Shown here: positions 1,593-29,649 of the stretch, in pieces
Numbering within the stretch: position 1 is the stretch's first letter
Layout: every line of letters begins with the position of its first letter
Source: a phage
Sequence record: PQ724392.1
DNA: 64,000 bases
Reading direction: 5' to 3' (one strand)
Position numbers and translations under genes: made by a program
Notes under the pieces: generated by a model
The model's database searches: none
Seen by the model: only the letters and a program-made list of their open reading frames with translations
What the model was told of the DNA's origin: nothing

Positions 1593-1897
1593 TGGTCACT
1601 CCAATAGCTTGATACTTCAAAATCAGGCTCGCCGTCGTCCCAGTACCAGGGACCCACCGGATGCCAATCGCCATGCTTATCTTCTTCATATTCTATAGAT
1701 TCAAGCCCAACGTATTGCCATTGGACTTCATAAGCAGTACCGCCGATTACAACAGTGTTCTCACCATACGGGTTAGCCACAGCAAAGTCAATACCTTCTT
1801 CCTTTGCCAGGGCGACCATGTATTCGTATAGTTTATATTCCAGGTCGTCTTCGTTGCCATCGCCCAGATAAATTGTTTGTCCGTCTAATTCACTCAT
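1589..1897 (-). CDS. hypothetical protein
   Basis: 102-aa ORF, Trp/acidic rich. Confidence 0.55.
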   Translation of the reverse strand: MSELDGQTIYLGDGNEDDLEYKLYEYMVALAKEEGIDFAVANPYGENTVVIGGTAYEVQWQYVGLESIEYEEDKHGDWHPVGPWYWDDGEPDFEVSSYWSDQ

Positions 1898-2070
1898 AAT
1901 TCCACCATAAATTCAAATAACTGGTCGCGTACACAAGTATCAGTCCAACCCCATTCGTTGGCTTCTTCTTTTAACCAATCCGGGAGATTTGCCAATACGG
2001 TTTCTTTACTAGGCGCAGGAGTATCAAACTCTCTTGCGCAGGTTTTATAGGCCATATCAAATTCGGTCAT
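1894..2070 (-). CDS. small hypothetical protein (58 aa)
   Basis: hand-translated open frame; ATGA overlap onto next gene. Confidence 0.35.
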   Translation of the reverse strand: MTEFDMAYKTCAREFDTPAPSKETVLANLPDWLKEEANEWGWTDTCVRDQLFEFMVEL

Positions 2071-2234
2071 TTAAAGTTCCAGAATGAAGCACCAACCAGA
2101 AATAAAGGCCAACAAATCATAGACGTCAGCCACCAGCAAAAGTCACCTGCACCGAAATCATCTAATTTAGCTAGGGTCTTAGCATAACCAATACCGATGA
2201 TAAGATACAAAATACCCAACAATAATTCAATCAT
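2067..2234 (-). CDS. small hydrophobic protein (55 aa), probable membrane peptide
   Basis: hand-translated; ATGA overlap with nrdC stop; one predicted TM stretch. Confidence 0.35.
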   Translation of the reverse strand: MIELLLGILYLIIGIGYAKTLAKLDDFGAGDFCWWLTSMICWPLFLVGASFWNFK

Positions 2235-2494
2235 TTAAAATATTCTCGCAGTTCAGTGAATCCGCCAATATGACTTCCGTCAGGAGCAAATACTTGCGGC
2301 ATGGTCAAACCAATTTGAGATTCGCGACCAAGTGCAGCCAGGAGTTGGGCAATCTTCTCATCATCAAACACACCTTTTTCTGGCATAACGTTGATGAACT
2401 CGTAAGGTTGTTTTTTAACATCCAAAAAACGTTTTGCATTATCGCAGAATACACAGCGATGAATAGATGAATCATAACCATATACTTTAAACAT
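2231..2494 (-). CDS. nrdC: Thioredoxin/glutaredoxin NrdC
   Basis: 87 aa; MFKVYGY...CVFCDNAK redox motif; close to remembered T4 NrdC. Confidence 0.85.
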   Translation of the reverse strand: MFKVYGYDSSIHRCVFCDNAKRFLDVKKQPYEFINVMPEKGVFDDEKIAQLLAALGRESQIGLTMPQVFAPDGSHIGGFTELREYFK

Positions 2495-2495
2495 A

Positions 2496-2738
2496 TTATT
2501 CCTTAATTCCTAATACTTGTTTGAAGGTCTCAGTATAATCGGGGTATTGACCGGTTTGTTCTTTATGTTTGACCATAATACCATAAACTTCTGAACGCAT
2601 ATTATTATATGAACGAGTTAAAGCAGATTTCAATACTGAATAACTATCCGGAAGTTTACCGTGTTCTTTATAATAGGCCAGAGTTAATTCACGGACCGCC
2701 TTATCAGCAGTCTCAAGATATTCTTTACGCTTTGCCAT
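2496..2738 (-). CDS. hypothetical protein
   Basis: 80-aa ORF. Confidence 0.5.
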
Positions 2739-3036
2739 TATCTACAATCTCATTATAAGCTGTATAGGCCGCTATTGCAATACACTCTTCTAACGGTAAA
2801 TTTGTATTTGGTTGGTTTATTAAAGCCGAATTAGCCCGGATTTTAAAAACAGTAATGGCATAATCAATTGAAGATTGAATATTACGATGGATGGAATCTA
2901 TACTAACTGTTGCACCGCAATCTTCAACGTATTGGAGACATATTCGGGTCGTTAATTCCTGAAGTTCTTTAAACAAGCCTTTCATCTCATCAGTCTCAAT
3001 GATATTTTGACTTTTAAATGGGTTTAAATTATTCAT
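2725..3036 (-). CDS. hypothetical protein (start trimmed to internal ATG)
   Basis: internal ATG at 3036 avoids overlap with upstream gene. Confidence 0.45.
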
Positions 3037-3316
3037 TTTCTTCTCGCTCAAATTTGTGTTTGCAATGTCTGCATTTATAACGAAGATTACTAGTCTGCCA
3101 ATGGACCAACTGGACCTGCTCAGTTCCACATTCTGGACAGTTTGGAACACGCTTAGAGGCGCGTTCACGGCGACGAACCATAGCCATTACCATATCCCAG
3201 TCAGTAACCTGGTTATAATCATCAGTCCAGTTTAAAAGACCTTTATTAACCCCCGCTGCGGGGGTCCATTCTGGAAATGCAGTTTCTGCAATATCTTCAG
3301 CTAAACGTTGTTTCAT
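3029..3316 (-). CDS. zinc-ribbon protein
   Basis: 95 aa; CPEC...CRHC Cys pairs. Confidence 0.5.
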   Translation of the reverse strand: MKQRLAEDIAETAFPEWTPAAGVNKGLLNWTDDYNQVTDWDMVMAMVRRRERASKRVPNCPECGTEQVQLVHWQTSNLRYKCRHCKHKFEREENE

Positions 3317-4302
3317 TTCAGCAGCTCCAGAGCTTGTTCCAGTTTATCCAGACGATTAGTTGATTCTTCCCAAAGTCGCTTGGCTTTGGTATAGTCTTCA
3401 GTTGCCTTTTTATTAACAGCAAGAGCTTTATTATACGCCATTTCCAGAGCAACAATTTCAGGCGCTTTTTGTTCCACTGGCTCATTATTCAGATTATCAA
3501 TCAGGTCTTCAAGGGTGGTTTCTTGCGGAGCATTCATAATTTCCTCACTTTTCTTTTTATAAATTTCTGCATCAGTTGGTTGTTTTGCGCATTTAACTTC
3601 ACGCAATGTCACCACAATTTTCCAACCTTTCCAACCATGAGCACTGGTGATAGGGTCTACTTTAATTTTTTCAACAGTGCGCATATAATTAAGGGCACAT
3701 TGCAGCTGTGAAGTAAGCGTGCTCGCGGCATCAAGATACTTTTTGACATTTTCTGGAGTAGCCACTGGCGTAAAGAATCCATACTTAACTGTAATAATTA
3801 CCTGGTTTTCACCAGACTCTTTAACCTTTATCATGTGCTCAGCCAAATGGGAGATAGTGCGATAATCGCTACCCATCAATTTTGTCGCTGATTTGATGAT
3901 AGACATTTTGTTATCTCTGAATTCACGAGCCCAGCAATTTGCGAATTCAGAAACAGTATAGCCTTGTTTATCAAGGTAGTATTTTTCAACATCACCAAAC
4001 CAATGATATCCAATTGTACCTTTACCATGTCTGGATTCAACGCCAAACTTATTAAGAAGGTCTTTATTAACTAGGTATGCCAGGACTCGGGAACCTTTAA
4101 AAGTTTTCTTGATATCATCTTTACCGGCACGGCTCGCAATAGTCGCAATGTCTTTCTTGAAGCGCCCGGATGCAACAATCGTCGAGTCAATCTGATTTAA
4201 CCAGTAATTGATAATTAAAAGGATAGCCGATTCACCTATTAATGGTTTTACTTTTGCATCGATAGTGGTGTTAAAGGCCTGGATATATTCGTTACGTGTC
4301 AT
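3313..4302 (-). CDS. hypothetical protein with C-terminal coiled coil
   Basis: 329-aa ORF; heptad-like C-terminus; promoter upstream. Confidence 0.6.
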   Translation of the reverse strand: MTRNEYIQAFNTTIDAKVKPLIGESAILLIINYWLNQIDSTIVASGRFKKDIATIASRAGKDDIKKTFKGSRVLAYLVNKDLLNKFGVESRHGKGTIGYHWFGDVEKYYLDKQGYTVSEFANCWAREFRDNKMSIIKSATKLMGSDYRTISHLAEHMIKVKESGENQVIITVKYGFFTPVATPENVKKYLDAASTLTSQLQCALNYMRTVEKIKVDPITSAHGWKGWKIVVTLREVKCAKQPTDAEIYKKKSEEIMNAPQETTLEDLIDNLNNEPVEQKAPEIVALEMAYNKALAVNKKATEDYTKAKRLWEESTNRLDKLEQALELLK

Positions 4303-4329
4303 AGTGTTCTCCTCATAAAGTAGGAATTC

Positions 4330-4359
4330 ATTATACTCCCTCCATCCTTGGAAGTAAAC
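4330..4359 (-). promoter_or_regulatory. sigma70-type early promoter (GTTTAC, 18 nt, TATAAT)
   Basis: read on minus strand just downstream of previous stop codon. Confidence 0.45.
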
Positions 4360-4360
4360 A

Positions 4361-5236
4361 TTATTTTAATGCTAAAATCGCCGCCTGCAATTTATTGCGT
4401 TGTGTTTCCATATTCTTGATGCGATTCAGAACATCCTGAATACCCTTTTTCTCATCTTCAATCAGACCGTTTAAGCGGTTGACTGATTCCTGGATAGCAT
4501 CAGCATGATAGCTCTCAATAGGCTTCATTGGTGGGTTAAAGATTTCAAGAGAGCTGTTTGGCTGGATTTTCCATTGATACATATTTTTAACTTCCAGTGG
4601 TGAAATTTTAGCCTGGTCGTAAGATTTAAACTGACCTGTAACTGCTGGGTTATATGCTGCAGTAGGGGTTTCCATTTCTGGTTCCTTTTTCTCTTGATAA
4701 GGAGCATAAGACAAAAGATATTCTTTAGTTAATTTAATATCAATGACTATAGTTTTAAGGAATTTTTCTGTTTGATGGATATAATTTGTATCTTCTTCAA
4801 ACGTGTATGCTTCAACGGCATGACGCATATAAAACAGAGCAATACCCATAACCTCTTTAAAGGTATCACAAAGAGCAACATCACCCTTAGTAGTTGGCTT
4901 GAACTTAATCTGCACGCCATCGTTCTTGATATTAATAATCAAGTTATCGGAGTTAAAATTATAGTTCTTGATGTTAACCGGAGCCTTGCGAATACGAAGC
5001 CCCGCAGCCAGGATTTCCTTAATGCTCTTACGAACTGTGGCACCAAACAAAAACGCAGGGCGGCGGCAGTAATCATTCAGAGAGTTAATTCTTACAATAC
5101 GTTGCCCATACCCCTGGGTGGCAGAACCTGATTTGATTTTACCAAAGTTAACCAGAGAATTCATCGCGATAAGACGGGTTGCACGACCTTCACGCTGTTC
5201 AAATCGAGAATATTCTTTACGTGTTTTAATTTTCAT
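4361..5236 (-). CDS. hypothetical protein with C-terminal coiled coil
   Basis: long ORF; start set to ATG at 5236 (alternatives 5260, TTG 5272). Confidence 0.55.
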   Translation of the reverse strand: MKIKTRKEYSRFEQREGRATRLIAMNSLVNFGKIKSGSATQGYGQRIVRINSLNDYCRRPAFLFGATVRKSIKEILAAGLRIRKAPVNIKNYNFNSDNLIINIKNDGVQIKFKPTTKGDVALCDTFKEVMGIALFYMRHAVEAYTFEEDTNYIHQTEKFLKTIVIDIKLTKEYLLSYAPYQEKKEPEMETPTAAYNPAVTGQFKSYDQAKISPLEVKNMYQWKIQPNSSLEIFNPPMKPIESYHADAIQESVNRLNGLIEDEKKGIQDVLNRIKNMETQRNKLQAAILALK

Positions 5237-5237
5237 A

Positions 5238-5453
5238 TCATAATCCAAATAATTTTTCATAGAGTTTAGCAAAAGGCCAGGTCACACACATTATAACAGC
5301 GACTACCCAGAATATAGGCCAGCAAAATGTTGTGAACGCCGCATCATACTCGTCCCCACTTTCGTAGGGACTATCAAACTTGTGGAGCAACAGGGTAGTA
5401 ATAAAACCTATCACAAGATAACCAAAAATAATGCTGATAATCAAAATAGTCAT
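5238..5453 (-). CDS. small membrane protein (2 TM)
   Basis: ATG at 5453 with AAGGA RBS; hydrophobic. Confidence 0.5.
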   Translation of the reverse strand: MTILIISIIFGYLVIGFITTLLLHKFDSPYESGDEYDAAFTTFCWPIFWVVAVIMCVTWPFAKLYEKLFGL

Positions 5454-5454
5454 A

Positions 5455-6300
5455 TTAATCCTTAAGCAATTCAATAACGTTCATCAGTTTCTGACGTTCG
5501 GCTTTCGCCGCGTTATTCAGTCCCGACAGACGGAAAATTTCATCATCTTGCTGCTGGATGGTGATGTTAAGCTCTTCAATCTGTTTAGTGAAAAGCTCAA
5601 TTTGCTCTGAATATTTTTCATTGCTTCGCACTGGAACAGGTTCCATTTTAGGAGCTTGTTCTGAAGGGCTGACTTCAAATTGGTCTTTAATTTGGCATAA
5701 TTTAATACGCTGGACGCCTCCAGTTTTAACATCATAAAAGGTAAGAATACCGTGACATTCCAGTACAGACAATGCCAAACGAAGATGGAATTTCCAATTA
5801 TCATATTGACATCCACTAAAAGAAGAAATACTGTATTCACCTTCTTTTTGACCTTTAATAACATTAAATAGTTTATAATCTAAAGAATTATTGGTTTTAA
5901 AGGTCATTTGTTTATCTTGACCGCTTGCTAAACGAGCGCCTAATGCCAATAAACGGCGCTGGTTTTTCCAAAGGTCTTTAACCACTTCATCAAACGTCAT
6001 GGTGTTAATCGCACGACCATAAAGGTCATAACCTTTATTATAATTTTTAAGTAAAATTTTGGCATTAGCACGAGACAACATACCTGAACGATGAAGAGAT
6101 TTCATGACTCGGTCTTCTAATGTAAGAAGACCAGTGGTCTTTTCAAAGATTTTAGTGAATTCAGCGGAATTAGTACAAACATTGAACTTATTCCACATCA
6201 TATATAGAACATTTAAAACCACATCTTTGGTGCTTGGTATACGACCAAATTTAACAACTTTTTTAACTTCAGAACGAATTTCATTAATTGCTTGCGACAT
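5455..6300 (-). CDS. hypothetical protein with C-terminal coiled coil
   Basis: 281-aa ORF. Confidence 0.6.
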   Translation of the reverse strand: MSQAINEIRSEVKKVVKFGRIPSTKDVVLNVLYMMWNKFNVCTNSAEFTKIFEKTTGLLTLEDRVMKSLHRSGMLSRANAKILLKNYNKGYDLYGRAINTMTFDEVVKDLWKNQRRLLALGARLASGQDKQMTFKTNNSLDYKLFNVIKGQKEGEYSISSFSGCQYDNWKFHLRLALSVLECHGILTFYDVKTGGVQRIKLCQIKDQFEVSPSEQAPKMEPVPVRSNEKYSEQIELFTKQIEELNITIQQQDDEIFRLSGLNNAAKAERQKLMNVIELLKD

Positions 6301-12913: not shown

Positions 12914-13486
12914 TCAGCTTGTTAATTCGAGCCAATGTTTTCTGCATAAAGATACGTACGATTCATTCCCACCGACTAACACTTGCTCGCCGTCCTTTAC
13001 AGCAGCACCGTCGATTACTCTCGCGGTCATGGTTGCTTTCCGGCCGCAATGACAGACGCCCTTTAATTCAACCAGTTTATCCGAAATAGCCAGAAGTCTG
13101 GCTGAACCGGGAAATAATTGACCCCGAAAATCTGTTCTTAACCCGTAACACATAACGGGGATATTGTAATTATCAACCACTTGAGCTAACTGGTCAATTT
13201 GCTCTGGTAACAAAAATTGAGCTTCATCGACCAGGACGCAATGGATATCCTTTTGAGACTCGGCCCATTTATAGAATTCAAACAGGTTCATGTCGGCCGT
13301 TACCAGGTTTGCTTCCTGGCTAATACCAATACGTGATTTAATTTCAGATTCCGAGTCCCGATTATCAATAACAGGTTTTAGCAAAAGCACACTCATTCCA
13401 CGCTCTTTATAGGAATAAGCTGCAGTCAGCAATGAAGCTGTTTTGCCTGCATTCATTGCTGCGTAATGATAAATTAAACTCGCCAT
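12914..13486 (-). CDS. tk: Thymidine kinase
   Basis: 190 aa; P-loop AMNAGKTASLL; zinc-ligand Cys in C-terminus. Confidence 0.9.
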   Translation of the reverse strand: MASLIYHYAAMNAGKTASLLTAAYSYKERGMSVLLLKPVIDNRDSESEIKSRIGISQEANLVTADMNLFEFYKWAESQKDIHCVLVDEAQFLLPEQIDQLAQVVDNYNIPVMCYGLRTDFRGQLFPGSARLLAISDKLVELKGVCHCGRKATMTARVIDGAAVKDGEQVLVGGNESYVSLCRKHWLELTS

Positions 13487-13884: not shown

Positions 13885-14078
13885 AATTCAATTCCGTCCA
13901 TAGCCAAAATTCTTTTTCGTTGGGCCTTGAGAGCTTCATTAGCCCGGTCATAATCTTCTTGACTACCGCTAGGCTGTAAAGCCGCTACTTTTTTGGCCAA
14001 GTGAATAAGCTTATCCAAGTTTTCAACAATACGTTCTTGTTCTTCATTCAGGCTCATAACCATTGCACCTTTAAGCAA
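13881..14078 (-). CDS. hypothetical protein
   Basis: 65-aa ORF. Confidence 0.45.
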   Translation of the reverse strand: MLKGAMVMSLNEEQERIVENLDKLIHLAKKVAALQPSGSQEDYDRANEALKAQRKRILAMDGIEL

Positions 14079-14266
14079 TATTCTTCTACATGCTGTTTAC
14101 GTTTATTTTTATCTATAAAAGTATATTCAACAAATGTTCCAATATAGTCTTTATCTACATCATGTGGACTATTAATTGGGCATTTAGTACGGCAAATGCG
14201 TTCCCATTGACGAATAATTTCCACCTTGTTTTTAGGGTCAAACGGATGCGGGTAATGTGCTTTCAT
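14054..14266 (-). CDS. hypothetical protein
   Basis: 70-aa ORF. Confidence 0.45.
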   Translation of the reverse strand: MKAHYPHPFDPKNKVEIIRQWERICRTKCPINSPHDVDKDYIGTFVEYTFIDKNKRKQHVEEYCLKVQWL

Positions 14267-14717
14267 AATCCACCACTATTAAATCAATATCAGGAGTAAA
14301 CATGTCGATTAATTTAGAAACCTTTTCCCAATCTCCACCTGCAATACCACAACCAATGCGAGGAATGTAAATTACCGGTTTAAACAAAAGGGTTTCTGCT
14401 TGTAGATTTAATTCTATCATACAATTTACTAAAGCACCATAATCAAGATTAGGGCCCGGTTCATATTGGGTGTACAAATTATAACACATACCAAACCCAG
14501 TAGGTTTATGTTTAAAAACAATAGACATATCGCCTAATTTATCACGAGAACCATATTCAGTGGTGGTTTTATCTATTTCTAAAACTTTTGGATAGGCCTT
14601 CGCCAACTGTCCAGCTACACCAGAACCCATTGTGTGAAAGCAGTTGCAACCATGAGCAATAATATTGCCTTGAAGAAAGAGGGCGACGATATCGCCCTTA
14701 ATATACTGGGTAATCAT
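14238..14717 (-). CDS. macro-domain protein (predicted ADP-ribose binding/hydrolase)
   Basis: 159 aa; AHGCNCFHTMGSGVAGQL and IGCGIAGG motifs resemble macro-domain signature. Confidence 0.6.
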   Translation of the reverse strand: MITQYIKGDIVALFLQGNIIAHGCNCFHTMGSGVAGQLAKAYPKVLEIDKTTTEYGSRDKLGDMSIVFKHKPTGFGMCYNLYTQYEPGPNLDYGALVNCMIELNLQAETLLFKPVIYIPRIGCGIAGGDWEKVSKLIDMFTPDIDLIVVDYESTLPASV

Positions 14718-15073
14718 TTAGAGTTCAATCCTCTATTATATGAATCCACTAACCTGTCAACCATACTGGTGCAGGCCGCCTTATATTTTGCACTTGAAAG
14801 AATGCAATCCATTTCAAATAATTTCTTTTCATATTTGTTGGATAATACATTCTTTTTCAAAAGTGTATGTTCAACATCATTTTGGCCATCTTTATATGCC
14901 GCGGTGAGCTTGGCACTGAACTGGATTATACAATCCACATTGCTTGCTGCGCAATAATCTTTGGCCGTCCTCGTTGCATATTCTATGATGCTGTTGTTGT
15001 CGTCGCTCTGTACTGAAGCTATTCCTCCCGTGCTGAATACTAACCCTATGGCTAAAGTGATAACTCTTACCAT
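14714..15073 (-). CDS. secreted/periplasmic hypothetical protein
   Basis: 119 aa with signal peptide; four Cys. Confidence 0.5.
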   Translation of the reverse strand: MVRVITLAIGLVFSTGGIASVQSDDNNSIIEYATRTAKDYCAASNVDCIIQFSAKLTAAYKDGQNDVEHTLLKKNVLSNKYEKKLFEMDCILSSAKYKAACTSMVDRLVDSYNRGLNSK

Positions 15074-15075
15074 TT

Positions 15076-15618
15076 TTAATCCACCGTTTTTAATAGGCCT
15101 CGTGATTTTAAGTAGTTAGCTTTTTCTAGGACCTGTGAAGCATACGTATTACCAGCTTTCACATTCCATCCTGCGTTATATGATGATAGTGTTTTCCTTA
15201 TATCCCCCTTATGAATATTCAACCAGTATGAAAGCTCAATGTAAGCCCAGCGTGCACTGTTCTCTCTCTTGCTTATCATCTTGATTATTTCTTTATCTGT
15301 CATTGTCCACCCAACCTGTTTCACGCGTTCGCGCACGGTTGGAAGATAATTTTGGAATATACCATATGCATGATGCTTATCTTTATTTAATCCAGTATTA
15401 ATCCCAGCAGAACTCTCCTGCCAGGTTAAACCAGCCATGATATATCCCAAACCATTATGTTGGTGCGGATTTTCTTTGTACTTACCATTTTTCTGGAACT
15501 GTTCTCCAAACGCATAAGCATATTGGAGGTTTTCCATTTGTTCATTACTGAAAGTAGGCTCTACGCTATGGGCAGACATACTAACTGTCAATAGTAAGGT
15601 GGCGATTACTTTTTTCAT
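15076..15618 (-). CDS. secreted lytic transglycosylase-like protein (T4 vs.1-like)
   Basis: 180 aa; signal peptide; GLTWQESS...AYGIFQ SLT-type motif. Confidence 0.7.
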   Translation of the reverse strand: MKKVIATLLLTVSMSAHSVEPTFSNEQMENLQYAYAFGEQFQKNGKYKENPHQHNGLGYIMAGLTWQESSAGINTGLNKDKHHAYGIFQNYLPTVRERVKQVGWTMTDKEIIKMISKRENSARWAYIELSYWLNIHKGDIRKTLSSYNAGWNVKAGNTYASQVLEKANYLKSRGLLKTVD

Positions 15619-15628
15619 GAATTCCCCA

Positions 15629-16087
15629 TTAGATATAAATCACTTTTGTGCTAATTTTTCCTTCCAGACGATTAGAGTTAACAAACGCCATACGACAACA
15701 CATGGTCGGAGACTTCCCAGGAATAGCGGGGTTAACTGTCATTCCTAACCACAGGTTCTTGTCTGTAATTTCCAGACGAAGTGGACGGTAGTTCACATTC
15801 GGGTCAATTTGTGCTTCAACTTCCGGGAGTGGTTTCATCTCCAAGAATTCAACGATTTCTTTTACATGTGGTGTGATTTTTCCAAACAAGTCAAAAACAT
15901 ATTGTTCATCAATTTCACGTTGGATTGCACGGTCCAACAGATGTGGACTGTACTTAATGAAGAATGCCTCAAGGCCTGCTTCTTTACAAGCCTTGTTGAT
16001 AGCATTATTAATTTTGAGGAACTCCGTTTCAAAAATGCGACGAAGTTTATTGCGGCGAATGTAAACACTTGAATCGATAGTAGTCAT
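15629..16087 (-). CDS. regB: Endoribonuclease RegB
   Basis: 152 aa from ATG 16087 (AAAGGAG RBS); strong similarity to remembered T4 RegB. Confidence 0.85.
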   Translation of the reverse strand: MTTIDSSVYIRRNKLRRIFETEFLKINNAINKACKEAGLEAFFIKYSPHLLDRAIQREIDEQYVFDLFGKITPHVKEIVEFLEMKPLPEVEAQIDPNVNYRPLRLEITDKNLWLGMTVNPAIPGKSPTMCCRMAFVNSNRLEGKISTKVIYI

Positions 16088-16114
16088 AATTATCTCCTTT
16101 TGTTTGATGGGATA

Positions 16115-16143
16115 ATCATAACTCATTTCAATCTGCTTGTACA
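16115..16143 (-). promoter_or_regulatory. early promoter (TGTACA, 17 nt, TATGAT) upstream of regB
   Basis: minus-strand reading; -35 overlaps upstream stop codon. Confidence 0.45.
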
Positions 16144-16723
<580 letters not shown>

Positions 16724-26889: not shown

Positions 26890-27333
26890 TTAAATTTCAA
26901 ATTCTTTGCGGAAGTTGGAAGCATAAGACTGAACTGATGCTTTGTTGAATCCAAACTCACGCACAATCATATCAATAACAGCTCTGCGAGCAGCACCATT
27001 AGACATATTAACAGTTTTGAACATATCATAGCATAAATCTTTGTTGCTCATACCGGAGCGTTTAGGTGCCTTACGTTCAGCTTTTGGTTCAGCTTTAGGA
27101 GTAGGTTTAACTTCTGGTTTAACCTGTCCATCATTCAGACCTTTAAAAATTTTACCTGCCAGAGTTGCCAGTTTAGCAGCTTCGCCACGAGTGATACCAA
27201 ATACTGCCGGGTTAAATGAAATACCTTCAGCTGCCAGACGTTTGAAGAACATACGTGCTGCGGATTGTGCTTCAGCTTCAGAAGAGTTGTTTAATGCCAG
27301 CTTAACGTACTTAACCAGTTTTGAAGTTTTCAT
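26890..27333 (-). CDS. hypothetical protein, paralog of 27415-27840
   Basis: 147 aa; shared tail GAARRAVID...VQSYASNFRK. Confidence 0.55.
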   Translation of the reverse strand: MKTSKLVKYVKLALNNSSEAEAQSAARMFFKRLAAEGISFNPAVFGITRGEAAKLATLAGKIFKGLNDGQVKPEVKPTPKAEPKAERKAPKRSGMSNKDLCYDMFKTVNMSNGAARRAVIDMIVREFGFNKASVQSYASNFRKEFEI

Positions 27334-27373
27334 TTTATTCTCCAGTGTTTATTTGGTAACTCAGTATGGGATA

Positions 27374-27403
27374 ATTATACACTATCCCACCTGGAAGTAA
27401 AAC
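27374..27403 (-). promoter_or_regulatory. early promoter (GTTTTAC, 17 nt, TATAAT) in conserved leader cassette
   Basis: minus-strand reading; -10 within GGGATA..TATCCC hairpin. Confidence 0.5.
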
Positions 27404-27414
27404 ACTTTTCTCAA

Positions 27415-27840
27415 TTATTTTTGAGCTTTGCGGAAGTTGGAAGCATATGACTGAACAACAGTCTTTTTGATATCATGGGTGTTAACCAGAACATCAATCA
27501 GGGCGCGTCGAGCTGCACCATCTGCCATATCAATTTCTGCAAATGCCTGGAAGCAAATGTCACGAGCATTACCAGATTTAGACTGGATTTTTTCTTCTTT
27601 AACTTCTTCAATTGGGAATTCAATCATTTCAGCTTGGATTAATTCAATGATAGATTCTTTTGACTGTTTGGTGTTTACCTTCAGTTCAGAATTAAGGGAC
27701 TTAGCGATGGCAACAATCTGGGTTGAAGTCAGATGAATAAGTGCATCTTCACGAATGCAGATTTCACATACTTCGTCGGCAACCATTTTGTTAGTGATGC
27801 GGGTAACAGAGAATGCAGAAGTCAGGGTCAGGAAGTTCAT
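27415..27840 (-). CDS. hypothetical protein, paralog of 26890-27333
   Basis: ATG 27840 with GGAG RBS; shared C-terminal tail. Confidence 0.55.
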   Translation of the reverse strand: MNFLTLTSAFSVTRITNKMVADEVCEICIREDALIHLTSTQIVAIAKSLNSELKVNTKQSKESIIELIQAEMIEFPIEEVKEEKIQSKSGNARDICFQAFAEIDMADGAARRALIDVLVNTHDIKKTVVQSYASNFRKAQK

Positions 27841-29496: not shown

Positions 29497-29573
29497 TGGT
29501 CGGGGTGGTGGGATTCTAACCCACAACCTACGGTTTAGAAGACCGTTGCTCTATACAATTGAGCTACACCCCG
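29497..29573 (-). tRNA. tRNA-Arg (anticodon UCU), CCA encoded
   Basis: hand-folded cloverleaf: 7-bp acceptor, D-stem GCTC/GAGC, anticodon loop CTTCTAA, T-arm GTGGG-TTAGAAT-CCCAC. Confidence 0.8.
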
Positions 29574-29575
29574 GG

Positions 29576-29649
29576 TGGCCCCATCCGGACTTGAACCGGA
29601 AACCTGCCAGTTATGAGCCGGATGCTCTAACCAATTGAGCTACAGGGCC
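29576..29649 (-). tRNA. tRNA with CAU anticodon (Met or Ile-lysidine type)
   Basis: hand-folded cloverleaf: acceptor GGCCCTG/TGGGGCC, T-arm TCCGG-TTCAAGT-CCGGA; abuts tRNA-Arg. Confidence 0.75.

Follow-up and report, generated by a model that had tools for sequence, protein, structure and literature searches.

Between regB and tk, the 64,000-nucleotide stretch of phage DNA that we analysed (sequence record PQ724392.1, hereafter the window) carries on its minus strand a reading frame of 159 aa (14238..14717, stop codon included). Sequence matches and a predicted structure identify its product as a macrodomain of the TARG1/ALC1-like class that stands alone as a single domain, and sequence and position together identify the gene as the positional orthologue of phage T4 tk.4, now renamed adfM. 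Judging from this orthology and from a glutamine-dependent mechanism like that of SCO6735, we consider with moderate confidence that its most likely function is the anti-DarTG2 de-ADP-ribosylation of phage DNA. The gene, its macro annotation, its fold and the anti-DarTG2 phenotype of its T4 orthologue are already public, and the finding is not a discovery: the T4-like phages have tk.4 in common, and its product already bears a macro-domain annotation.

The tk.4 locus in a T4-like phage

The window belongs to a T4-like phage of the genus Gaprivervirus and aligns to positions 40,070-103,965 of Escherichia phage ECML-359 at an identity of about 96.5-99%. The complete genome of ECML-359, its nearest relative, encodes orthologues of alt, modA, modB and 30.3 (adfN), as T4 does, and the macrodomain gene is unlinked to alt or the mod genes. 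An earlier note, made from the letters of the sequence, had described a macro-domain reading frame in the regB-tk interval without identifying it as tk.4; the reading frame exists on the minus strand and the interval is correct, with regB at 15629-16144 (PF10715, 3e-72) and tk at 12914-13486 (PF00265, 6e-58). The mechanical regB reading frame starts at a GTG, but Pfam matches it from residue 23 onwards and its counterpart is annotated in ECML-359 with 152 aa; the true regB start is probably the ATG at 16087. A second copy of the macrodomain was not found within the 64 kb of the window. Elsewhere in it, two adjacent tRNA genes, tRNA-Arg(TCT) and tRNA-Met(CAT), lie at 29497-29649 on the minus strand, a cluster much smaller than the T4 tRNA cluster of eight genes.

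The order of the locus is regB (PHROG 1323), vs.1 (600), vs (1256), the macrodomain (335), tk.3 (2008) and tk, and the PHROG order is identical in T4. When 79 related viral loci were compared, the 31 with a macrodomain 49-96% identical to that of the window all kept regB, vs.1, the macrodomain and tk, and vs and tk.3 were also present in most of them. Relatives of the Tk.4 type were found in 2,756 phage records, and the gene appears in public records as 'macro domain-containing protein', as 'phosphatase' or as tk.4. T4 Tk.4 itself is 56% identical over 155 aa, is the sole significant match in both directions and is encoded, like the window protein, between vs and tk.3/tk. The two share locus and gene order, are of similar length (155 vs 159 aa), overlap the vs stop with their start codon and have in common all residues that are invariant in the family, including His22, Asn25 and Gln84. 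The window allele class differs in being about 44% diverged and more acidic, and in a C-terminus that is 4 aa longer.

Upstream, the orthologue of vs (14714..15073, minus strand; PHROG 1256, 2e-32) ends in an ATGA (14714..14717) in which its stop codon overlaps the macrodomain start, and the same 4-nt overlap is seen in the T4 reading frames; translational coupling of vs and the macrodomain can be inferred from this arrangement. A Shine-Dalgarno-like GAGGA, read from the sequence, lies 11 nt 5' of the ATG (14729..14733, minus strand) and is also found 5' of T4 tk.4. The start codon is correct, since the N-terminus MI..YIKGD is kept in homologues. Downstream, the orthologue of tk.3 (DUF7202; 14054..14266, minus strand; PF23832, 8e-37) overlaps the 3' end of the macrodomain by 29 nt. 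A scan of the region from 12.5 to 17.5 kb for promoters and terminators gave counts no higher than those in shuffled sequence. Lying 20 nt into the macrodomain reading frame, a GC-rich 8-bp hairpin (AGGGCGAT-ATC-GTCGCCCT, 14680-14698, minus strand) is followed by a U-rich stretch. T4 and several other T4-like phages have kept this intragenic hairpin, a single, apparently compensatory change from G-C to A-U being seen in two T4-like loci (L019 and L026), and its stem codons are identical between window and T4 (5/5) as against 47% elsewhere. Because the peptide KGDIVAL largely forces the stem, the full 8/8 pairing arising in 11% of its synonymous recodings, these observations are weak evidence of selection on the hairpin.

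The earlier note had also set the gene next to a secreted protein and a lytic transglycosylase-like gene. Vs and Vs.1 (PHROG 1256 and 600) do have signal-peptide-like N-termini, and the SLT-domain match of Vs.1 is weak (E = 0.029, below the cut-off). The 'secreted protein' is the orthologue of T4 Vs, which is annotated as a valyl-tRNA synthetase modifier. Vs.1 (15076-15618, minus strand) begins with a signal-like sequence and is called an SLT-domain protein in GenBank records. The signal-peptide-like N-terminus of Vs reads MVRVITLAIGLVFSTGGIASVQS in the window and MTKILVLCIGLISFSASASAD in T4 (locus 2157-2504), and is hard to square with a cytoplasmic target.

Fold, class and catalytic position

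The macro-domain call of the earlier note was borne out by sequence and by predicted fold. In the Pfam search, PF01661 (Macro) matched over profile positions 2-117 of 118 with 33 bits (E = 6.2e-8), above its gathering cut-off of 22 bits, and PHROG 335 matched at E = 1.1e-70; since both profiles match, a chance reading frame is excluded. Sequence searches of the PDB found BT1257 (6e-11), Poa1p, SCO6735, Mycobacterium tuberculosis DarG and TARG1, and these matches became stronger with the family profile. An AlphaFold2 model, built from a 42-sequence alignment with the T4 row left out, was confident (pLDDT 92.9, pTM 0.88) and has the predicted three-layer alpha/beta/alpha fold of a macrodomain. 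Its best matches are TARG1, DarG, BT1257/SCO6735 and Poa1p; Foldseek against the PDB placed TARG1 at the top (E = 6e-9, TM 0.72/0.81), with Thermus DarG, BT1257, Poa1p and M. tuberculosis DarG next in rank. The protein is closer to TARG1, DarG, SCO6735 and Poa1p than to the MacroD, viral and PARG classes, and from the Foldseek ranking and the agreeing sequence searches we therefore assign it to the TARG1/ALC1-like class, a class within which fold similarity does not separate functional subtypes.

Both strings that the earlier note had likened to ADP-ribose-binding loops are present, and in alignments with TARG1, DarG and SCO6735 they coincide with the two loops by which those proteins bind ADP-ribose. 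Loop 1 comprises residues 21-38 (AHGCNCFHTMGSGVAGQL; 14604..14657, minus strand) and contains His22, Asn25 and Cys26, which are invariant in all of the family members that cover those positions (119 of the 121 retrieved). His22 and Asn25 fall in the columns of SCO6735 His24 and Asn27, and Asn25 is also aligned with DarG Asn22. Loop 2, residues 121-128 (IGCGIAGG; 14334..14357, minus strand), aligns with PRIGCGLAGG in SCO6735 and BT1257, with PPLGAGNGG in DarG and with PRIGCGLDRL in TARG1. As the loop residues align with the ADP-ribose-contacting loops of solved complexes, the cleft is predicted to bind ADP-ribose.

The catalytic position is occupied by Gln84, in the motif N80-L-Y-T-Q84 (14466..14480, minus strand). 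This residue shares its column with the catalytic lysines of DarG (N-F-P-T-K80) and TARG1 (L-I-T-K84) and with Gln85 of SCO6735 (N-M-I-G-Q85), and the same register at this position was obtained with MAFFT, hhalign and hmmsearch against the PDB, the DarG and SCO6735 sequences having been taken from the PDB alignments. Gln84, Asn80 and Tyr82 are invariant in 121/121 family members. The aspartate of TARG1 at position 125 is absent, Ala126 standing in that column. By alignment, then, glutamine replaces the catalytic lysine of DarG and TARG1 exactly as it does in SCO6735, and the protein has the combination that marks the SCO6735 type, a glutamine at the catalytic position together with the equivalents of His24 and Asn27. 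SCO6735 hydrolyses thymidine-linked ADP-ribose on DNA, its Q85A mutant is inactive, and a water-mediated mechanism has been proposed for it (PMC9411070). Its Lys34 and Lys89 have been implicated in the handling of DNA. These two lysines, which belong to the electropositive DNA channel of SCO6735, are not conserved in the window protein, where Ser32 and a Pro/Gly-rich loop take up their columns. With a pI of 5.05 and a net charge of about -5, the window protein is acidic, and T4 Tk.4 is mildly so (pI 5.9); SCO6735 (pI 9.5) and the macrodomain of Thermus aquaticus DarG (pI 9.0), which act on DNA, are both basic.

Comparison with characterized macrodomains places the protein near several of them. 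Human TARG1/OARD1 (PDB 4J5R), the top Foldseek match, has the PRIGCG loop in common with it; its Lys84/Asp125 dyad is replaced by Gln84/Ala126, and the window protein is not a TARG1 proper. SCO6735 (S. coelicolor, PDB 5E3B) and BT1257 (Bacteroides, PDB 2AFC/2FG1) are 25-28% identical to it and, unlike it, are basic proteins (pI 8.4-9.5) encoded by bacterial chromosomal genes. True DarG was considered and rejected. The NCBIfam DarG model NF048014, whose equivalog cut-off is 250 bits, gave 28.5 bits over model positions 3-141 of 338 only, whereas a genuine DarG scored 415 bits, and the PADLOC DarG match covers positions 4-144 of 329. DarG (DarG2; PDB 5M31, 5M3E, 5M3I) has Lys80 in its FPTK motif where the window protein has Gln84, and has a C-terminal DarT-binding domain and an adjacent darT, both of which are lacking here: the neighbours of the macrodomain gene are vs and tk.3, and no darT (DUF4433) adjoins it. 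With the toxin-binding domain missing, the score far below the cut-off and no darT neighbour, the protein is not a DarG; it may work on DarG's substrate. The DarG reference in this comparison was a locus on the Haliscomenobacter hydrossis plasmid pHALHY02 (locus 1860-3565), which holds a complete DarTG2 pair, a DUF4433 darT directly upstream of a 352-aa darG, adjoining a gene for a COR-domain protein.

Chimalliviruses also encode an AdfM (PhiKZ gp104), likewise an orphan phage macrodomain that counters DarTG2; unlike the window protein, it resembles DarG, is of the Lys type (N23/K78) and undergoes import into the phage nucleus (Cell Rep 2026, PMC13309987). With the macrodomain of Thermus DarG as query, tblastn returned 286 phage records, mostly of jumbo and N4-like phages, and no T4-type record of 170 kb was among 30 rows sampled across the ranking. 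Since this DarG-type search returned no sampled T4-type record, the PhiKZ-type and T4-type AdfM look like separate lineages. In Thermus phage phiMa, a macrodomain at 27029-27472 is 82% identical to that of T. aquaticus DarG and looks like an orphan antitoxin domain of recent capture. Homologues of the window protein about 30% identical occur on Bacillus thuringiensis plasmids inside genes annotated 'SLOG family protein' (e.g., NZ_CP013278.1 145437-145904), which suggests macrodomain-SLOG fusions on large plasmids of this species.

Probable counter-defence role and competing explanations

The function of the T4 orthologue has been approached genetically. When a T4 transposon library was screened on a DarTG2-expressing host, tk.4 was the single significant hit, and a clean tk.4 knockout sensitised T4 to DarTG2, whence the name adfM; the result, from a preprint, was obtained at 30 C in minimal medium against a single DarTG2 system, and enzymatic removal of ADP-ribose from DNA is the inference of its authors (bioRxiv 10.1101/2025.11.20.689424). 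The earlier note had proposed that the macrodomain could erase either the marks that the host places on phage DNA or those that the phage places on host targets. The sensitivity of the T4 knockout supports the former, and the latter is without support; the defence-erasing idea is essentially right but not new, given the phenotype shown in the 2025 preprint. In the explanation that we favour, the host toxin DarT2 would attach ADP-ribose to thymidines of single-stranded phage DNA and block its replication, and the macrodomain enzyme would cleave the thymidine-ADP-ribose bond and restore the DNA. The protein would be an orphan antitoxin-like enzyme lacking the toxin-binding domain of DarG, and its mechanism would be Gln-positioned and water-mediated, like that of SCO6735 and not the lysine mechanism of DarG. 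An identity to T4 Tk.4 of only 56% counts against this explanation, as does the acidity of a protein in which SCO6735 Lys34 and Lys89 are not conserved.

The acidic pI of the window protein and of T4 Tk.4, set against the basic SCO6735 and Thermus DarG, favours a small-molecule substrate and with it a different enzymatic role. Adpp of Vibrio phage Gary is an ADP-ribose-1''-phosphate phosphatase by means of which NARP1, a pathway of NAD+ reconstitution, overcomes aRES, a RES-domain defence (2026 preprint 10.64898/2026.01.28.702374). As its main or an additional job, the window protein could be a phosphatase of this kind, like Adpp or Poa1p, turning into ADP-ribose the ADPR-1''-phosphate that NAD+-depleting defences with a RES domain (aRES-type) produce. 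Adpp and Poa1p (PDB 6LFQ) have the same fold class as the window protein, and His23 and Ser30 of Poa1p align with its His22 and Thr29. Vibrio phage Pontus gp172, 40.6% identical to the window protein, lies between Adps-like and Namat-like genes (locus 3129-6192), a three-gene block found in about 49 Vibrio phage records; its link to Gary Adpp is the operon layout and the fact that both are Vibrio phages. In this NARP1 layout gp172 has the same histidine, asparagine and glutamine and a G-L-A-G-G loop. The window protein is thus homologous to a NARP1-embedded macrodomain, as it is to Poa1p with the equivalents of His23 and Ser30, and the active-site residues, which we tried as a discriminator between AdfM and Adpp, failed, the His, Asn, Gln and G-I/L-A-G-G loop being identical in both. 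Because a 40%-identical relative embedded in NARP1 has the same residues, they do not fix the substrate. Genomic context, unlike these residues, does discriminate. Adpp sits in an Adps-Adpp-Namat operon and acts on ADPR-1''-phosphate, whereas the lineage of the window phage is without Adps or Namat: tblastn (E <= 1) detected no homologue of either, whether in the window or across the whole genome of ECML-359, and the gene does not lie in or near such an operon. Since Adps and Namat homologues are lacking, an ADP-ribose product would have no known phage use here. The synteny is with T4 tk.4 and not with NARP1, and the knockout phenotype of the T4 orthologue is DarTG2-specific. We therefore regard an Adpp-like activity as unlikely. 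Also doubtful, in our opinion, is the view that T4-type AdfM belongs to a Gln-type family shared with Adpp and is not a DarG mimic, in which case one and the same acidic, single-domain protein might serve two counter-defence roles, or might protect from DarTG2 in some way that does not involve repairing the DNA directly.

The protein could also neutralise DarT2, or another ADP-ribose-based system, without catalysis, by binding the toxin or by sequestering ADP-ribose-derived signals. Macrodomains do act as receptors of ADP-ribose signals in type II Thoeris. The catalytically dead Q85A mutant of SCO6735 remains an inhibitor of DarT in vitro, and a stronger one than the corresponding mutants of DarG and TARG1 (PMC9411070). 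However, the match to DarG, confined to positions 3-141 of a 338-position model, leaves out its C-terminal DarT-binding domain, and the catalytic-site His, Asn and Gln, invariant across 121 sequences, are what would be expected of an enzyme, a weak argument that also fits a pure binder; we judge neutralisation of this kind very unlikely. Least probable of all, and in our view scarcely credible, is that the macrodomain removes the ADP-ribose marks that the phage itself places on host proteins through Alt, ModA and ModB, so as to tune or recycle them. The three genes are encoded in the nearest complete genome, a co-occurrence and nothing further, and the macrodomain gene lies apart from them. 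The modification by Alt, ModA and ModB is specific to arginine. Esters of acidic residues or thymidine-linked ADP-ribose are what macrodomains of the TARG1/MacroD type cleave; arginine N-glycosides need enzymes of the ARH/DraG type, and macrodomains of the TARG1 class are not known to cleave arginine-linked ADP-ribose. The marks made by the phage would thus fall outside the known cleavage of this class, and no phenotype of own-mark reversal has been reported for T4 tk.4.

Allele exchange and significance for T4-like phages

Anti-DarTG2 de-ADP-ribosylation, the reading we prefer, concerns a gene that occurs in more than one form at the same place. Compared with ECML-359 and UPEC07, which are about 98% identical and lack it, tk.3 is an insertion of about 200 nt (14063-14262) and is accompanied by a longer macrodomain C-terminus (159 aa vs 154 in UPEC07); a 90-92% macrodomain allele occurs in some phages closely related to the window. 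The viral genome IMGVR_UViG_3300010279_000005 (locus 3001-3477) has flanks 96.6% identical to T4 at the nucleotide level around a window-type allele (96% aa identity), and carries tk.3 too; the mosaic allele was also noted in two further loci (L004 and L005). Because a T4-type backbone carries the window-type allele, two allele classes that share about 56% identity have been exchanged between T-even genera, and from these comparisons the window-type and T4-type tk.4 alleles are evidently interchangeable at one locus. If AdfM did have two roles, removing thymidine-linked ADP-ribose against DarTG2 and dephosphorylating ADPR-1''-phosphate against RES-domain defence, the two swapped allele classes might reflect adaptation to different host systems.

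The mechanistic additions made here are modest: a glutamine in place of lysine at the catalytic position, and active-site residues that are common to the Adpp phosphatase family. Since these residues are shared with a family of ADPR-1''-phosphate phosphatases, the assignment of a substrate is a tentative one. The result gives a likely role to a small early gene that is conserved among the T4-like phages. Between them, AdfM and the NADAR enzyme AdfN (gene 30.3) would allow these phages to undo both known kinds of DNA ADP-ribosylation by DarT, on guanine and on thymine, which bears on the prediction of host range for therapeutic T4-like phages on E. coli that carry DarTG.
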